A DNA stretch of 5,924 bases from an uncultured Gammaproteobacteria bacterium (GTDB taxonomy: Bacteria; Patescibacteriota; Patescibacteriia; UBA2591; UBA6264): the NCBI GenBank assembly GCA_964617525.1, contig CAZTWG010000040.1, positions 1 through 5,924 of the forward strand, given 5' to 3'. The position numbers were made by a program, and so were the translations under genes. Below the pieces are notes generated by a model. It saw nothing but the letters and a program-made list of their open reading frames with translations. It ran no database searches and was not told the DNA's origin. The stretch's first letter is position 1, and every line of letters begins with the position of its first letter. Of the stretch, positions 34 through 5,924 are shown in pieces.

Positions 34-1248
34 TTGAGTCAATTACTTGAAGTCTTGAAACCTTTGGGACTCATGGAAGAGCAAACAAAAAAAATAGCAG
101 TAGAAATCTTAAAACGCAGAGTTTTGCCTTTGAGTGATTATTTAAAAGTTAATACTTTGTTATATATTAAGAAATGGGGAGGTGAAATCCCAGCAGACGA
201 ATTCTCAAAGTTAGTTAAAACAGAATCCCAAGGCAAGATAGATGCAGATAATATTATAGAGCAAATCATTAAAGAAACAGGTTTAGAGCTAAAAGACCAT
301 GTTCTTGAGAATAGATTTAAAAATATAGTTCTTTCGTTTATTCGTAATGTACGTAGCTTTACAGAAACAGCTATTGTTTTGAAAAGGCCCTCAAAAATTG
401 GAGGTATGGGGATTGAACAGGGATTAGTTGATAAGATTATGACTATCTTGCAGAAAGAAGAGCAACAATCTAAGACCGTTTCACTTTCAACAAAAAAAAT
501 CGTTAGTAAAGAAATAGCTAAGGCTTTAATGAGAACTCCAGCTAAGGAATTATTAAAAATAGAGACTAAGGTGCTTAAGGTTGCTCCAAAATTAGAAACA
601 TTTCTTGTTGAATTAAAAACTAAGACCCAAAAACCATTAATAAAAAAAATAGAAAAGATAGAAAAGATAAAAAAGGATAAAAAAATAGATACAGATAGTG
701 AAGAAATGACTCAAGATATAGAAAAGGCAATTAAAAAATTCCAACCACAAAAAGCCTCTCCTCCTCAAAAAAAGATTATTTTAGAAGAAAAGAAGAAACA
801 AATTTCGAAAACCCCAGAGAAGCTTGCAGAAATCAAACCTAAATTTTCTGACGATATTCCTGTCTTGAAGAGGAATATACCGAAACCTGATAAAATAATG
901 GTTGAAAGCGTTAGTAATTATCCTAAAATTTATGGACCAAGCGATGAGCTCAGAAATATTAGTTTAATTGATTGGAGAAGATGGGGAACATCTCGAGAAG
1001 CTATGCTTAAAATTTTAGAAAAAATAAATTTATTGGGAGAAGAATCTTTGATTAAAAAAGCCGAAGGAATTAAATCGTGGAAAGAGTCAGAGATTAATAA
1101 GCTTTATTTAGGCATAGGGGAAGAGTCAATCAACAAAGGTAAATCAGTGGGGAAGATAATTAGTGAACGTCAAAGGGACGGCAGAAAAACTTTAACCCAG
1201 AAAGAGTTTAATGCAGTCGTAGAACTAAATCAGAAATTGCGTTTCTAA
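34..1248 (+). CDS. Hypothetical soluble Lys/Glu-rich protein with three parts: helical N-terminal domain, low-complexity K/E/P linker and Trp-containing C-terminal domain. Possibly 5'-truncated by the window edge.
   Basis: Long uninterrupted ORF ending in TAA at 1246-1248. The same frame has no stop back to position 1, so the TTG at 34 (or the ATG at 73) may not be the true start and the gene may begin upstream of the window. No hydrophobic segment long enough for a TM helix or signal peptide. Central part (about aa 150-290) is K/E/I/P-rich low complexity. C-terminal part (...GPSDELRNISLIDWRRWGTSREAMLKILEKINLLGEESLIKKAEGIKSWKESEINKLYL...LTQKEFNAVVELNQKLRF) looks like a folded helical domain. 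I recognise no catalytic motif. Confidence 0.6.
   Translation: MSQLLEVLKPLGLMEEQTKKIAVEILKRRVLPLSDYLKVNTLLYIKKWGGEIPADEFSKLVKTESQGKIDADNIIEQIIKETGLELKDHVLENRFKNIVLSFIRNVRSFTETAIVLKRPSKIGGMGIEQGLVDKIMTILQKEEQQSKTVSLSTKKIVSKEIAKALMRTPAKELLKIETKVLKVAPKLETFLVELKTKTQKPLIKKIEKIEKIKKDKKIDTDSEEMTQDIEKAIKKFQPQKASPPQKKIILEEKKKQISKTPEKLAEIKPKFSDDIPVLKRNIPKPDKIMVESVSNYPKIYGPSDELRNISLIDWRRWGTSREAMLKILEKINLLGEESLIKKAEGIKSWKESEINKLYLGIGEESINKGKSVGKIISERQRDGRKTLTQKEFNAVVELNQKLRF
649..675 (+). repeat. In-frame 9-bp tandem repeat ATAGAAAAG: two perfect copies and one imperfect copy (ATAAAAAAG), encoding IEK-IEK-IKK.
   Basis: Read directly: ATAGAAAAG at 649-657 and 658-666, ATAAAAAAG at 667-675. It lies in the low-complexity linker of the 34-1248 ORF. 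Confidence 0.6.
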
Positions 1249-1308: not shown

Positions 1309-1734
1309 ATGCAGTTTGTAGTTCCTCAATTTATTGACGTTGAACCTAAAATTTTAGGCCCAATTACTCCTCGTCAATTAATTATTATGATAGTTACCTT
1401 TGGGTTAGGTTTTGTCTGTTTTAAATTGTCTGACTTTACTCTTTTTATTTTTGAAGCAATCATCCTACTTGTCGTTGGTGGCAGTCTAGCCTTTTTTAAA
1501 GTTAATCATCGTCCTCTTCATTCTTTTCTTCTTGACGTTTCTAATACACTCAAAAAACCTAAACTAAGAGTCTGGAGTAAAAAATCCTCGCCATTTCCTG
1601 AGAAAGAGCTAAAGGTAAAAAAGGATTTGCCGTCAGAACTAATAGATACCCGTCGCAAACCACTTTTTCGCTCTAGGCTTTCTCAAATAGCTTTACTAGT
1701 TGATACCGGAGGAAGATATGAGGAGGAAGAATAG
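1309..1734 (+). CDS. PrgI-family / VirB3-like small T4SS inner-membrane protein.
   Basis: 141 aa. The N-terminus MQFVVPQFIDVEPKILGPITPRQL followed by two adjacent hydrophobic helices (IIMIVTFGLGFVCFKL and FTLFIFEAIILLVVGGSLAFF) and then HRPLHSFLLDV...LRVW matches my memory of the PrgI family signature (xVPxxIdxExKIxGxLTxRQ + TM hairpin). Its position just upstream of virB4 is the canonical VirB3/PrgI position. Confidence 0.7.
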   Translation: MQFVVPQFIDVEPKILGPITPRQLIIMIVTFGLGFVCFKLSDFTLFIFEAIILLVVGGSLAFFKVNHRPLHSFLLDVSNTLKKPKLRVWSKKSSPFPEKELKVKKDLPSELIDTRRKPLFRSRLSQIALLVDTGGRYEEEE

Positions 1735-1839: not shown

Positions 1840-2493
1840 ATGAACATAGCATCTACTCAAAAATATTTAGATATTACTGAAATAAAAAATGATTGCATAG
1901 TTTTAAAAGACGGTAGCTTAAGGGCAATTTTACTTGCTTCGTCTATTAACTTTGCCCTTAAATCTGAAGATGAACAAAAGGCCGTTATTCAGTCTTATGC
2001 TCGTTTTTTAAATACACTAGGATTTCCTTTGCAAATTGTTATTCATTCTAGACCATTTAATATTGACCCATATGTTAATGAATTAAACGTTTTGCGACAA
2101 AATCAAACAAATGAGCTTCTTAGAAATCAAACTACAGATTATCGTGATTTTATTAAAGAGTTAATAGATTTAGGAGAGATAATGAGTCGTCGTTTTTATA
2201 TTGTTGTTCGCTATAATCCGCTTGGCGACAAAAAGAAAGGATTTTTATCTAAGATTTCAGACATATTAAGTGCAGCCATTGTAGTAAAAATCAAAAGAGA
2301 AAAATTTGATGCTTGTAGAGAAATGCTTTTCAAGAGAGTTGATAACATTACTTCTGGGCTTTCCTCTATGGGGATTAAGACTAGTCCCTTGGATACCCAA
2401 AGTTTAATTGAATTGTTTTATAATATATATAATCCTGCTGAAGCTAAAAATCAAAAATTAATAGATTTAGAAAAATTAAGAATAGAACAATAA
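1840..2493 (+). CDS. VirB4-family N-terminal domain encoded as a separate 217-aa ORF (split VirB4, part 1).
   Basis: The N-terminal stretch (KYLDITEIKNDCIVLKDGSLRAILLASSINFALKSEDEQKAVIQSYARFLNTLGFPLQIVIHS) matches the opening of monoderm VirB4 homologues as I recall them: a 'dg-i-tkdG-y-..-v-.iNf-L-s-eEq-..i-..f-.fLn-l...iq' pattern in the Tn916 Orf16 / CD1110-type N-termini. It ends at TAA 2491-2493, one base before the ATG of the ATPase ORF. The start is well defined, because an in-frame stop at 1822-1824 leaves ATG 1840 as the first start. Confidence 0.65.
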   Translation: MNIASTQKYLDITEIKNDCIVLKDGSLRAILLASSINFALKSEDEQKAVIQSYARFLNTLGFPLQIVIHSRPFNIDPYVNELNVLRQNQTNELLRNQTTDYRDFIKELIDLGEIMSRRFYIVVRYNPLGDKKKGFLSKISDILSAAIVVKIKREKFDACREMLFKRVDNITSGLSSMGIKTSPLDTQSLIELFYNIYNPAEAKNQKLIDLEKLRIEQ

Positions 2494-2494
2494 T

Positions 2495-4378
2495 ATGTCT
2501 ATAACTCCAGAGAGTTTAATCAAAAAAGAAAAAATTAAAGAAAAGAGAGTGGCTTCTTTGTCAGATAAAAAAGCTCAGGAATTTATTAATACTGAGGAAA
2601 AATATCGACGTGGTCGTTTCAAGGTCCAAGACCTAATTGCTCCCTCAGCTTTAAGAGTAACTCCTCAATATCTTCAACTAGGTGGTAGATATTTGAGGAC
2701 GATTTTTGTGGTAGGGTTTCCAAGATATATTTCTGTCGGTTGGTTTATGCCAGTTATTAACTTTAATGCTTATTTAGACGTAGCTATGTTTTTTTACCCA
2801 GTTAAGGCAAGTGTTGTTCTCAAACAATTACAGAATCGTGTTGGCAATCTTCAGGCAGAGATGAGCATTGCTCAGGAGAAGGGTTTACCTCGAGATCCTT
2901 TAAAGGATACGGCACTTAATGATATCGAGCAATTAAGGGATAGCTTAACTACTGGTGTTGAACAATTTTTCCAATTTGGTTTGTATATAACAGTTTACGC
3001 GAAAGATGAAAAAGGATTAGATTTATTGACTGAAAAAATAGAAAGCCTTCTAGCCTCAAAGTTAATTTACAGCCGAAGAGTCTTTTATCAATCAGAACAA
3101 GGGTTCAATTCTACACTTCCCTTATCTAACGATCGGTTAATGGTCTTAAACAACATCAATTCTTCTCCTTGCGCCTCTAGTTTTCCTTTCATATCTGCTG
3201 ATTTAACTTCAGACAATGGCGTTCTTTACGGGATTAACAGACATAATAATAGTTTGATTCTTTTTGACCGTTTTTCTATGCCTAACGCTAATTTTGTTGT
3301 ATTTGCTACCTCTGGGGCTGGTAAATCGTATTTTTGTAAATTGGAAGTTTTAAGGTCTATGATGTTCGGTACAGATGTAATTATAATTGATCCAGAGCGA
3401 GAATACGAACATCTTTCAGATGCTGTAGGCGGAACCTATGTTAATATTTCCCTTTCTTCTAAAAGCAAAATTAACCCATTTGATTTGCCAAGGTCAGAGA
3501 ATAAGGACATTAGTGCGGCTGATGTGATTCGCACTAGTGTTATTACTGTTAAAGGACTTCTGAGAATTATGATTGGACAAGAGAATAGAGGAGGTGTTAA
3601 AAGTTTTACTTCTCAAGAAGATTCTATAATTGACAGAGCTTTAATTGAAACTTACGCAAAGAAAGACATTGTGCCTGGGTGTGACTTAAGTAGAGTAGAT
3701 GTCCCTACCATGAGTGATTTGCAGGAAATATTAGAAGGCATGGAGGGAGGAAATGACCTAGCGGAAAGATTAAAAAAATATACTGAAGGCACTTTTGCTG
3801 GCTTCCTTAATTATCCTACTAATATAGAAATGGATAACCAGTTAGTTACTTTTTCTGTTAGAGATATTGAGGACGAGTTAAGACCAATGGCTATTTATAC
3901 TATTGTGAATTATATTTGGAATGTAGTTCGGGCAAAGCTAAAGAAAAGAATTTTGTTAATCGATGAAGCTTGGTGGTTGATGCAACATGAGGATTCAGCT
4001 AAATTTATTTTTGCTTTAGTCAAGCGTTGTCGAAAATATTATTTAGGCGTTACCACGATCACTCAAGATGTTAATGATTTTTTGGAATCGTCTTATGGCC
4101 GAGCTATTGTGACTAATTCGGCGCTACAATTACTTTTAAAGCAATCTCCTGCAGCTATTGATGGAGTAGCTAAGACCTTTATGCTTACAGAGGGTGAAAG
4201 GTATTTATTGTTGGAATGTGGGATTGGGGATGGAATATTCTTCGCTGGCTCTAAGCATGCGGCTATTAAGATAGTTGCTTCCTACTCCGAAGACCAATTA
4301 ATAACATCGGACCCTAAGCAATTATTAGAGATTAATGAAGCTAAAAGGGAGTTTGCCAAACAGTACAAAACAAAATAA
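2495..4378 (+). CDS. virB4: VirB4/TrsE/ConE-family T4SS ATPase (middle domain plus C-terminal ATPase domain; split VirB4, part 2).
   Basis: 627 aa. Walker A ATSGAGKS is encoded at 3305-3328 and Walker B ILLIDEAW at 3950-3973, followed by GVTTITQDVNDF (sensor-like TQ motif). The pre-ATPase region DLIAPSALRV..YLQLGGRYLRTIFVVGFPRYISVGWFMPVINF..LDVAMFFYPV and the YGIN..N.LILFDRF..PNANFVVFATSGAGKS context are typical of VirB4-family proteins. The C-terminal GIGDGIFFAGSKHAAIKIVASYSE..LITSDP is also typical. Confidence 0.9.
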   Translation: MSITPESLIKKEKIKEKRVASLSDKKAQEFINTEEKYRRGRFKVQDLIAPSALRVTPQYLQLGGRYLRTIFVVGFPRYISVGWFMPVINFNAYLDVAMFFYPVKASVVLKQLQNRVGNLQAEMSIAQEKGLPRDPLKDTALNDIEQLRDSLTTGVEQFFQFGLYITVYAKDEKGLDLLTEKIESLLASKLIYSRRVFYQSEQGFNSTLPLSNDRLMVLNNINSSPCASSFPFISADLTSDNGVLYGINRHNNSLILFDRFSMPNANFVVFATSGAGKSYFCKLEVLRSMMFGTDVIIIDPEREYEHLSDAVGGTYVNISLSSKSKINPFDLPRSENKDISAADVIRTSVITVKGLLRIMIGQENRGGVKSFTSQEDSIIDRALIETYAKKDIVPGCDLSRVDVPTMSDLQEILEGMEGGNDLAERLKKYTEGTFAGFLNYPTNIEMDNQLVTFSVRDIEDELRPMAIYTIVNYIWNVVRAKLKKRILLIDEAWWLMQHEDSAKFIFALVKRCRKYYLGVTTITQDVNDFLESSYGRAIVTNSALQLLLKQSPAAIDGVAKTFMLTEGERYLLLECGIGDGIFFAGSKHAAIKIVASYSEDQLITSDPKQLLEINEAKREFAKQYKTK

Positions 4379-4397: not shown

Positions 4398-4961
4398 ATG
4401 AGTAAAAAAAATATTTTTGTTGTAATTATTGTCATTATTCTTTTATTAGCTGGAATTTCTTTGATGCTTTTAAATAATAAAGATGCTGACATTGACGTTA
4501 ACGTCGATGTTAAGCCAGAAGAAAGTATTGCCCCAAATATTCCTTTAGAAGAAAAACAAGAACAAAATGAGAAAGAAGTTGTTGACCCTCTTGTCACTGT
4601 TCAAGGGCAATTAAAAAATAAAGTTCGTTTTTTTGTGGAACGTTATAATACTTATTCTTCAGATAACAATAAAGAGAATTTACGCAATTTATTGTCACAA
4701 ACTAGCAATAAGCTAACGAAAGACATAAAGGTTCGTCTAAATGAAGAAAATAATCAAGATGATGTTTTCTTTTCTTTCCAAACTAAAGTATTGTCTATAG
4801 CATTGTCTGATTTTGTTGATAAGGAAAAAGCGGTTTTCGAATGTCAAATTGAAGAACAAGAAACAAAAGGAGAAATAACAGAGGTTCATTATAAAAAAGC
4901 AATCCTAGAATTTATTTATGAAAATAAAGAATGGAAAGTGGATAGGATTGAGATAAAATAA
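4398..4961 (+). CDS. Signal-anchored extracytoplasmic protein; candidate VirB8/TcpC/PrgL-like (NTF2-fold) T4SS component.
   Basis: 187 aa. N-terminal TM/signal anchor (IFVVIIVIILLLAGISLMLL), an acidic linker, then a domain of about 120 aa. That domain starts with a helix FFVERYNTYSSDNNKENLRNLLSQTSNKLTKDI, resembling the 'F...Y.tw......r...L..y....l' helix pair that opens VirB8-like domains. Alternating beta-like segments follow (VFFSFQTKVLSIALSDF, AVFECQIEEQE, ITEVHYKKAILEFIYENKEWKVDRIEI). It lies directly downstream of virB4. The functional call is inference from pattern and context only. Confidence 0.45.
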   Translation: MSKKNIFVVIIVIILLLAGISLMLLNNKDADIDVNVDVKPEESIAPNIPLEEKQEQNEKEVVDPLVTVQGQLKNKVRFFVERYNTYSSDNNKENLRNLLSQTSNKLTKDIKVRLNEENNQDDVFFSFQTKVLSIALSDFVDKEKAVFECQIEEQETKGEITEVHYKKAILEFIYENKEWKVDRIEIK

Positions 4962-4982: not shown

Positions 4983-5573
4983 ATGCCTACTGATTTTGAG
5001 AAAGCTAAACAAGAACAAGAGATAAAAAGGAAGCTTTGGCGTCAACAACAAAAAGCGCGGATGCAAAGACATCTGCCAGGGGGCTTATCAACAAATAATC
5101 AAAACAAAAAAGAAATAGAAGAAAAGGAGGTAGAGGACAACGAAGAGTTTCCATCTGGAATGAGCTTTGAAGCTATTACCGCTAGATTAAGGAAGCAAAA
5201 ATTAGAAAAATTAAGGAAAGGAGAGAATAAGAAGGGAAAAATGAGCAAGATCGCAGAAGCGAAAAAGAAGGTGGAAGATGTTAAAGAAGCCGCAAAGAAT
5301 TTAAAAAATATTTATAGAATAATTAACGGAGTCTCGGCAGTAAGTTTAGCAGGATTAATCATCACCTTTTTGGTTATGAATGCACAACTGATTTTAGGAA
5401 ATTGGCTGAAAGTGAAGTTGGTCCCAGAGTTATCTTTCCCAGAAATCCTTATTATTATATTCATTGATTTTATGATTTTTATAGCATTATTAATATTGTT
5501 TTTGTTAATTTGTTTTATCATCGCTATAATAATGCAACATCCTGTCATAAAAATCATAAAAATGGTAACATAA
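4983..5573 (+). CDS. Hypothetical membrane protein with a highly charged N-terminal region (about 110 aa) and a C-terminal hydrophobic hairpin or multi-TM segment.
   Basis: 196 aa. The N-terminal half is K/E/Q-rich (KQEQEIKRKLWRQQQKARMQRH..., KKEIEEKEVEDNEE, KLRKGENKKGKMSKIAEAKKKVEDVKEAAK). The C-terminal part has hydrophobic stretches VSAVSLAGLIITFLVMNAQLIL and FPEILIIIFIDFMIFIALLILFLLICFIIAIIM. It is tightly packed between the VirB8-like and pilin genes (21-nt and 4-nt gaps). I recognise no family. Confidence 0.6.
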   Translation: MPTDFEKAKQEQEIKRKLWRQQQKARMQRHLPGGLSTNNQNKKEIEEKEVEDNEEFPSGMSFEAITARLRKQKLEKLRKGENKKGKMSKIAEAKKKVEDVKEAAKNLKNIYRIINGVSAVSLAGLIITFLVMNAQLILGNWLKVKLVPELSFPEILIIIFIDFMIFIALLILFLLICFIIAIIMQHPVIKIIKMVT

Positions 5574-5577
5574 AAAT

Positions 5578-5924
5578 ATGATTAATAGAAATAAAAAATT
5601 TTTGCTTATTTTCTGCTTATTCTTTCTGTTTGCCAACTTTTCTTTGGTTATGGCTAAAGATGTCATGTTCAAGCCACAGATAGAAATTCCAGAAGAACAA
5701 ATTGATGGTGTCAATATTAAGCCAGGGCAAGAGATTCAGATTAAGGGTAGGTCGTTTATTGACTATATGATGGCGATTTACAAATGGTCTGTGGGCGCTA
5801 TTGCAATTATTGCTGTAATTATGATTATGGTAGCTGGTTTCCAGTGGATGACTGCGGCTGGTAATGCCTCTACGATTGGACAAGCTAAGTCTCGTATTAG
5901 TTCTTCTTTGATTGGTTTACTTTT
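5578..5924 (+). CDS. VirB2/TrbC-like T4SS pilin precursor, 3'-truncated by the window end and absent from the supplied ORF track.
   Basis: ATG at 5578, 4 nt after the previous stop, with the frame open to the window end. My translation is MINRNKKFLLIFCLFFLFANFSLVMAKDVMFKPQIEIPEEQIDGVNIKPGQEIQIKGRSFIDYMMAIYKWSVGAIAIIAVIMIMVAGFQWMTAAGNASTIGQAKSRISSSLIGLL... It has a classic signal peptide (basic n-region, hydrophobic core, VMA|KD cleavage-type site). A TM helix (AIAIIAVIMIMVAGFQW) follows, then a short loop T-AAGN-..-AK and the start of a second hydrophobic helix. That is the VirB2/TrbC topology, and it matches the '..G...t.aGn......AK..i...l.Gl' motif I associate with the T4SS pilin family common in Patescibacteria. 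Confidence 0.7.
   Translation, partial: MINRNKKFLLIFCLFFLFANFSLVMAKDVMFKPQIEIPEEQIDGVNIKPGQEIQIKGRSFIDYMMAIYKWSVGAIAIIAVIMIMVAGFQWMTAAGNASTIGQAKSRISSSLIGLL

Follow-up and report, generated by a model that had tools for sequence, protein, structure and literature searches.

A T4SS_pilin-family hairpin protein with a large cysteine-rich outer domain, encoded downstream of virB4 in a Patescibacteria-type secretion gene cluster

The stretch of DNA analyzed here (hereafter the window) comprises the 5,924 nucleotides of positions 1 to 5,924 of contig CAZTWG010000040.1 (GenBank assembly GCA_964617525.1), deposited under the name of an uncultured Gammaproteobacteria bacterium and placed in the GTDB lineage Patescibacteriota. 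It carries part of a type IV secretion system (T4SS) gene cluster, one gene of which begins at position 5578 and runs off the window. This is a chromosomal gene of a Patescibacteria (Parcubacteria-like) bacterium and a fixed component of the T4SS cluster. The parts of the gene contained in the window, together with the two open reading frames (ORFs) on the opposite strand, are as follows.

5578..5924, + strand: gene of a T4SS_pilin-family hairpin protein, first 115 codons plus 2 nt of 387 (open frame, ORF of the longer contig L001, Pfam PF18895)
5578..5655, + strand: predicted Sec signal peptide, residues 1-26, cleavage after V-M-A (charge, hydrophobic core, -3/-1 rule)
5656..5772, + strand: predicted extracellular N-terminal linker, residues 27-65, with the motif F31-x-P33-Q34-x-x-I37-P38, invariant in alignment A1
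5773..5853, + strand: predicted transmembrane helix 1 of the hairpin, residues ~66-92 (hydropathy; AlphaFold2 helix 60-93)
5854..5895, + strand: short basic loop AAGNASTIGQAKSR, residues 93-106, predicted cytoplasmic (positive-inside rule)
5896..5922, + strand: start of predicted transmembrane helix 2, residues 107-115 of ~107-127, cut by the window end (completed in L001; AlphaFold2 helix 97-127)
5617..5883, - strand: 88-aa antisense ORF, not a gene judging from stops in the related contigs L008, L010 and L012 and from substitutions that track the + frame
5505..5714, - strand: 69-aa antisense ORF overlapping the conserved + strand genes at 4983-5573 and from 5578 onward, with no sign of being a gene

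On the + strand, translation from the ATG at 5578-5580 proceeds through 115 codons to the window end without encountering a stop, and the other two + frames contain 8 and 12 stops over these 345 nt. When the segment was shuffled at the mononucleotide level, an equally long open frame was obtained in 28 of 200,000 trials and is thus rarely expected by chance. The stop codon of the upstream ORF (TAA, 5571-5573) is separated from the ATG by 4 nt, and the G+C content of the window is 32.8%. Both the open frame and this spacing had been pointed out in an initial annotation made from the letters alone, as had the absence of the frame from the mechanical ORF list, and all three are borne out. The list holds for this region only the ORFs at 5505-5714 and 5617-5883, both on the minus strand, because it omits ORFs that run off the window end.

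This raises the question of which strand is coding. That the two minus-strand ORFs are the real genes, the + frame being open by chance, is favored by their being the sole ORFs mechanically listed here. However, the differences observed with homologous DNA follow the + frame, with 24, 17, and 62 differences at codon positions 1, 2, and 3 for L008 and 20, 16, and 51 for L010, the near-identical contigs L001-L004 (0-8 differences) being too similar for such a test. The + frame is open in all homologous DNA compared (L008, L010; two other assemblies), and the register of the 88-aa ORF is interrupted by in-frame stops in L008, L010, and L012, as seen in the ungapped hairpin block. Moreover, 39 homologues of the + strand product were found in the database, the best non-identical ones reaching an E-value of 1e-140, and the product matches a curated Pfam family. 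Finally, both antisense ORFs overlap conserved + strand genes, the 69-aa one coinciding mostly with the upstream gene and with the variable linker. In the strand comparison that the initial annotation had recommended, the third-position excess and the broken frame of the longer antisense ORF speak for the + strand. From these comparisons, the + frame at 5578 is a real gene and the longer antisense ORF is neither conserved nor a gene; the probability that we leave to the opposite assignment is virtually negligible.

Longer contigs, L001 (NCBI GCA_053986565.1, 17 kb) and L002, were found by an exact-product look-up with the VirB4 protein of the window; the same look-up with the 196-aa protein encoded just upstream of 5578 gave no match. 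In L001, the complete gene occupies positions 5569-6732 and encodes a protein of 387 aa. Over the shared 347 nt, L001 and the window differ by 7 nucleotides (7-8 across L001 and L002). All 7 window-L001 differences fall at 5688-5749, that is, within 62 nt of the N-terminal linker; 5 of them change an amino acid and the hairpin is identical. This segment looks like a hotspot of strain-level variation in an exposed part of the protein.

The complete sequence is best explained by a product in four parts, namely a Sec signal peptide, a linker with the F-x-P-Q-x-x-I-P motif, a PF18895 hairpin and an extracellular domain of ~250 residues. The N-terminus consists of an n-region, MINRNKK (+3), followed by an 18-residue hydrophobic core (Kyte-Doolittle) and by V-M-A / K-D, which fits the -3/-1 rule. 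At least 90% of the homologues retain Ala26, and we infer that the protein is inserted by Sec and cleaved after this residue. Over the full protein, the hydropathy profile shows segments at 6-26, ~66-92, and ~107-128. The loop AAGNASTIGQAKSR contains two basic and zero acidic residues, and its K104 (full-protein numbering) is the same in all 34 sequences of the module alignment A2. According to the positive-inside rule, this loop would face the cytoplasm, with both termini outside and the C-terminal domain at the surface. Helix 2 is complete in the L001 ORF (SSLIGLLLVIGAYSILNFINPSLV). Translation and hydropathy thus agree with the layout that had been read in the truncated frame, a signal-peptide-like N-terminus, a transmembrane helix, the loop and the start of a second helix, and the second transmembrane helix, for which a search in the completed ORF had been advised, is present there.

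Helix 2 is followed by ~250-260 residues containing 16 cysteines, all past residue 135; this outer domain represents about two thirds of the mature chain. AlphaFold2 predicts a long helical hairpin (60-127) and a beta-rich domain. Modelled alone, and then with good confidence (pLDDT 81, pTM 0.77), the outer domain appears as a beta-sandwich followed by a cysteine-rich tail, and it is probably disulfide-bonded. Foldseek searches of the PDB with the full model and with the outer-domain model gave nothing at an E-value of 0.001 or better (best E 0.014 for the outer domain). The weak matches were generic beta-sandwiches (MD-2, CBM11, CBM86, jelly-roll capsids, GOLD domain), their TM-scores not exceeding 0.43, and no function was adopted from these neighbors. 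Pfam searches with 19 outer domains found no family. An outer-domain profile search, a method of limited sensitivity, returned only five members, all belonging to the same pilin-fusion family, and no other scaffolds.

The hairpin is recognized by Pfam PF18895 (T4SS_pilin; cut-off 26.6 bits), with 29.4 bits for the 115-aa fragment and 29.5 bits for the full protein. In the latter, the match extends over residues 64-127 (profile positions 9-71 of 71). The layout of PF18895 proteins, a signal peptide and then two hydrophobic helices with a short loop between them, is found here, and so is the virB4-adjacent location expected for them, in the window as well as in seven related loci. The small mature size of VirB2/TrbC pilins (~70-120 residues, mostly hairpin) is not found, the complete ORF being 387 aa long. 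NCBIfam NF045849 (equivalog cut-off 40 bits) is matched below its cut-off, with 20.5 bits for the fragment and 30 bits (E 3e-7) for the complete module, which makes the protein a relative of that family and not an equivalog. It is matched likewise below cut-off by 31 of the 34 module sequences (best E 4.8e-9), the module covering profile positions 10-76 of 80. A multi-module relative, P0135, passes the cut-offs of both PF18895 (223 bits) and the TrbC/VirB2 family PF04956 (51 bits). These matches of P0135 and to NF045849 may be regarded as indirect links to VirB2/TrbC-type pilins.

Conservation is very unevenly distributed along the chain. Twenty-one of the 39 homologues are full-length and were aligned end to end (38-63% identical). 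The mean pairwise identity reaches 82% in the hairpin module, 52% in the N-terminal linker (27-57), 34% in the outer beta-rich domain and 30% in the cysteine-rich tail. G87, K104, and G113 of the hairpin are invariant and an NPSLV motif is conserved; in the outer part, about a dozen cysteines and two tryptophans are invariant among the 21 sequences. Such a near-invariant hairpin suggests specific contacts, the partners being either other copies of the hairpin, within a filament or stalk, or the VirB3, VirB4 or VirB6 homologues.

Searched exhaustively by phmmer, the 115-residue fragment gave 5,183 cluster representatives at E <=0.001. A set of 170 proteins, composed of the best phmmer matches and of the earlier homologues, was examined. 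Their median length is 357 aa; 144 are longer than 250 aa and only 7 do not exceed 160 aa, two short relatives that were inspected being contig-edge fragments. In single-module relatives, the module begins at about residue 58; the tail that comes after it has a median length of 197 aa and a median of 14 cysteines, the tail cysteine count being even in 131 of 157 cases. Even counts would fit extracellular disulfides. Judging from these sequences, the usual form in the examined part of the family is a hairpin with a variable cysteine-rich outer domain, and a bare pilin is exceptional.

Two other architectures were observed among the relatives. In L014:9986-11197, L016:6518-7639, P0029, P0035, and P0036, the C-terminus resembles VanY/M15 peptidases instead of the cysteine-rich beta-sandwich. 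The match is above the Pfam cut-off for P0036 (25.1 bits) and sub-threshold, at 18-22 bits, for the L014 gene, one L016 gene and the others. Such a fusion could be a cell-wall hydrolase, with a VirB1-like role, joined to a VirB2-like hairpin. In P0146 (287 aa), P0061 (555 aa), P0096, P0108, and P0135 (820 aa), 3 to 8 T4SS_pilin hairpins occur in tandem in a single chain, P0135 having 8 Pfam T4SS_pilin stretches. Such chains resemble arrays of pilins joined covalently, or else polytopic membrane proteins made of pilin modules.

Upstream of 5578, the window contains the following + strand genes.

34..1248, + strand: conserved Lys/Glu-rich cluster gene, 3' part; homologues of 412-522 aa, no family; collinear in 6 of 7 related loci
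1309..1734, + strand: PrgI-family (VirB3-like) membrane protein (PF12666, 28.4 bits for a cut-off of 27)
1840..2493, + strand: TrsD-like protein, similar to the N-terminal region of VirB4 and encoded by its own gene (NF041427 TrsD/TraD, E 8.9e-9, below the cut-off of 200 bits)
2495..4378, + strand: VirB4-type ATPase, 627 aa (NF045971, CD1110-family VirB4-like ATPase, 328.4 bits for a cut-off of 325; PF19044, 95 bits)
4398..4961, + strand: p187, 187-aa protein with an N-terminal transmembrane segment; collinear in 7 of 7 related loci, no Pfam/NCBIfam match
4983..5573, + strand: p196, 196-aa protein, charged at the N-terminus and hydrophobic towards the C-terminus; collinear in 6 of 7 loci, not detected in L016, sub-threshold Pfam matches only

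The VirB4 protein also matches NF045975 (239 bits). The TrsD-like protein is matched by NF045975 and NF045971 through the N-terminal regions of these models, and carries a precomputed PF26593 TraC-like annotation. Its ORF ends 1 nt before the VirB4 start, in agreement with the split VirB4 arrangement reported for Patescibacteria. In the related Parcubacteria contig L010, VirB4 (L010:4865-8743) is a 1,292-aa protein with an intein and a LAGLIDADG endonuclease (PF14890, PF14528); the VirB4 of the window is without intein.

Gene order was compared by local phmmer searches against six-frame ORFs of the seven related loci, which are contigs from different assemblies of uncultured genomes. The collinear block consists of VirB6-like (884 aa), a gene denoted X, PrgI/VirB3, TrsD, VirB4, p187, p196, the pilin-module gene, p430, and RadA, after which RecG and TyrRS follow in the gene tables. 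L016 begins at virB4, and the upstream block is not covered there; in L001, the call for the counterpart of the 34..1248 gene runs off the contig start. The pilin-module gene is the third gene downstream of virB4 in all seven contigs, also where the outer domain differs. Thus, the VanY-like gene of L014 occupies this third place; that of L016 is a second pilin-module gene, located downstream of p430. Apart from L016, with two, each locus has one pilin module within 10 kb. Tandem pilin paralogues, for which the initial annotation had advised a check, are not found within 10 kb of the gene. In the gene tables of L001, L008, and L010 (14-21 kb), no relaxase, coupling protein or integrase family is present, and the flanks carry RadA, RecG, TyrRS, and Wzy_C. 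A scan of genome contigs gave only five loci, several of them bearing an 'uncultured Gammaproteobacteria' title.

The VirB4 proteins of Patescibacteria form a clade related to the monoderm MPF-FATA class, with TrsD, PrgI/VirB3, and VirB6 encoded near VirB4 and the relaxase mostly absent (Quinonero-Coronel et al., 2025; PMC12102498). The order of the TrsD, PrgI, and VirB4 genes found here agrees with that survey (PMC12102498). By its gene content, with a monoderm-type VirB4, separate TrsD and PrgI/VirB3 genes upstream and no relaxase nearby, the locus is a Patescibacteria-type (MPF-FATA-like) T4SS. The public records of L012, L014, L015, and L016, contigs with the same type of T4SS block, bear the title 'uncultured Gammaproteobacteria bacterium,' which is likely to be a placeholder or a labeling error; because the gene content is of the Patescibacteria type, we take these titles as unreliable.

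Three proteins of the block without an assigned family deserve mention, two of them (p187 and p196) membrane proteins. p430 (L001:6771-8063) combines a transmembrane segment with a PD40-like beta-propeller and is very strongly conserved (E down to 1e-261). p187, p196, and p430 are collinear with T4SS genes in most related contigs and can be considered as candidate unrecognized T4SS components; p187, for example, has the size and the N-terminal transmembrane layout of a VirB8-like protein. That p187 and p196 might be further pilin modules was considered and rejected, the module hidden Markov model (HMM) giving E-values of at least 0.08 for p187 and no match for p196.

What, then, could be the role of the 387-aa protein? 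In the survey, PF04956 and PF18895 served to detect VirB2-like pilins, which occurred in 1,948 Patescibacteria assemblies and near virB4 in 1,135 of them, and PF18895 proteins were treated as VirB2-like pilins; its main text does not discuss long pilin-domain fusions (PMC12102498). In Southlakia epibionticum, the one species tested, T4SS genes including those for the pilins are essential (PMC10633639). For the Patescibacteria T4SS, the role was called 'completely unknown' (PMC11665869). We consider it reasonably probable that the protein is a subunit of the T4SS, its hairpin being processed in the manner of VirB2 and its outer domain being exposed and facing the host. In this mechanism, the hairpin would be the part recognized by the VirB4/VirB3/VirB6 machinery, which would extract it from the membrane, as is the case for VirB2, into a pilus-like or stalk-like surface structure. 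Alternatively, the hairpin may stay docked at the T4SS machine. By either route, the variable outer domain would be shown at the cell surface, where it would most plausibly contact the host cell or its envelope.

Several points weigh against this interpretation. A domain of 250 residues on each subunit would crowd a VirB2-type helical filament, so that a location at the tip or base, or as a minor component, is as plausible as a homopolymer. To our knowledge, no decorated conjugative pilus of such a kind has been described. Homology to genuine VirB2/TrbC is not demonstrated by the PF04956, hhalign and PDB searches. PF04956 gives 14.0 bits (E 0.061, for a cut-off of 27.9) with the fragment and is not listed for the full-length protein at E-values up to 0.1. 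Sequence searches of the PDB with the fragment and with the 34-sequence module profile gave chance matches only and no solved conjugative pilin. The hhalign comparison of A2 with an Agrobacterium-type VirB2 alignment, A4, gives a non-significant probability of 8.3% over 21 columns, this VirB2 alignment being a narrow one (56-85% identity to its first sequence); the aligned part is the end of helix 1, where G-x-x-W-M matches. Neither Pfam nor the PDB yields a significant relative of the outer domain, so that the binding role proposed for it is a guess. Predicted signal-peptide cleavage and topology rest on simple rules. Finally, the pilin search covers 10 kb on either side of the gene, and a small major pilin could be encoded elsewhere in the genome.

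These searches also bear on the initial annotation, which had described the product as a VirB2/TrbC-like pilin and had called for an HMM search against the pilin families. Its pilin-like character stands, with PF18895 above cut-off (29.4 bits) and a T4SS context; the assignment to VirB2/TrbC itself is not supported, with PF04956 at 14.0 bits and a product of 387 aa. From profile evidence, we place the protein under PF18895, or 'VirB2-like,' and not under VirB2/TrbC proper. The further claim that the gene changes the reading of the locus was not sustained. The T4SS was already readable from VirB4, TrsD, and PrgI, and since T4SSs of this type with pilin-like genes are published, the gene refines this reading.

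Three other explanations of the protein may be considered. The hairpin could be a membrane anchor only, carrying a surface adhesin or enzyme that does not polymerize and that acts beside the T4SS or independently of it. The long and varied outer domains of most close relatives (144 of 170 above 250 aa, median tail 197 aa) would be consistent with this possibility, and the VanY/M15-peptidase-like domains of some of them fit a generic anchor with its cargo. Moreover, no pilus has been reported so far for any Patescibacteria T4SS, such a pilus being qualified as an 'intriguing possibility' (PMC12857230). However, a plain anchor needs neither 82% identity, where the rest of the chain is only ~32% identical, nor invariant G87, K104, and G113 residues and a conserved NPSLV motif. 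The fixed third place downstream of virB4 in seven contigs also argues for a role in the machine. We see the anchor-only explanation as rather unlikely. A classical small VirB2/TrbC pilin forming a bare conjugative-type pilus, possibly with tandem paralogues, as read initially from the truncated frame, would account for the signal peptide, the hairpin and its basic loop, as well as for the PF18895 match and the T4SS context. It is, however, contradicted by the completed sequence, with its 250-residue outer domain. PF04956 far below threshold, the 8% hhalign probability, the single pilin module per locus within 10 kb and the lack of relaxase and coupling protein in the 14-21 kb loci further make this explanation improbable.

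A variable cysteine-rich outer domain is also typical of secreted host-interaction proteins. It can thus be asked whether the product is a substrate of the T4SS or of Sec, or an effector, released from the cell and foreign to the apparatus. Two conserved transmembrane helices after the signal peptide would, however, lead to membrane retention unless the chain is cleaved, and T4SS substrates are normally cytoplasmic and devoid of Sec signals. This makes a released protein very improbable.

Within the T4SS-subunit interpretation, a more ambitious proposal can be formulated, to which we attach a low probability. The protein may stand for a class of 'headed' VirB2-like pilins that has not been described before. 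The core of a surface structure built by the T4SS would in this class consist of near-invariant hairpins, and every subunit would bear an outer domain that evolves fast or can be swapped. According to this proposal, the outer domain would be a cysteine-rich beta-sandwich here and a VanY/M15-like cell-wall peptidase in sister lineages, with up to seven or eight fused hairpins in relatives. Such a class, if true, would be the conjugative-type counterpart of the type IV pilin design and would offer a direct approach to the way in which the T4SSs of Patescibacteria contact or breach the host.

The benefit for annotation is modest: a missed edge-truncated gene is recovered and assigned to a published chromosomal Patescibacteria T4SS. 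The finding is neither a classical pilin nor a new system; it is the extended 'headed' architecture, together with the peptidase fusions and the multi-hairpin proteins, that merits specialist attention. The architecture is the more useful result, in that the sole pilin-module gene near virB4 in this lineage encodes a long protein with a hairpin that hardly changes and an outer domain that is divergent or exchanged for another. Should the hairpin be incorporated into a surface structure of the T4SS, the outer domain would be the prime candidate for the part of the machine that contacts the host, and a concrete experimental target.

Comparison with known systems places the protein as follows. 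Type IV pilins offer an analogy only. They share with the present protein a conserved hydrophobic segment and a variable, disulfide-containing globular head at the surface. However, they have a single N-terminal helix with a prepilin-peptidase site, where a two-helix hairpin and a Sec signal peptide are found here, and they are assembled by another machine; homology is not claimed. The VirB2/TrbC/TraA propilins of diderm bacteria (PF04956) are closer in design: they too have a Sec signal peptide and two hydrophobic helices connected through a short basic loop, and their gene neighbors that of the VirB4 ATPase. Their known topology, termini outside and loop in the cytoplasm, agrees with the one predicted for the protein described here. 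In contrast, their sequences and profiles give no significant match, their mature chains have ~70-100 residues instead of ~360 with a large C-terminal domain, and the host here is monoderm. Cyclization, acetylation and a filament would be hypothetical for the present protein.

The Mbov_0395 family 'pilin-like conjugal transfer protein' of Mycoplasma integrative and conjugative elements (ICEs; NF045849) is the best-named NCBIfam relative of the hairpin. It also belongs to a monoderm MPF-FATA-type system, and the VirB4 family of that system, NF045975, matches the VirB4 of the window. It differs by an 80-residue model without outer domain, by scores below the cut-off and by its location on an ICE, whereas the present locus is chromosomal; a literature search on the Mycoplasma locus tags gave nothing useful. 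Because the match is to a 'pilin-like' family of Mycoplasma ICEs, it suggests that pilin-like hairpins may be native to monoderm MPF-FATA-type systems and not borrowed from diderm ones. The closest known counterparts are the PF18895 pilins of Patescibacteria, for instance in the array of S. epibionticum ML1. Both share the Pfam family, above the gathering score, the signal peptide and hairpin, and a chromosomal cluster with an MPF-FATA-like VirB4, TrsD, PrgI/VirB3, and no relaxase nearby. However, Patescibacteria pilins sometimes occur in arrays of 2-11 genes (PMC12102498), each encoding a small pilin, whereas the locus described here has a single gene for a 387-aa protein with a 250-residue cysteine-rich outer domain.

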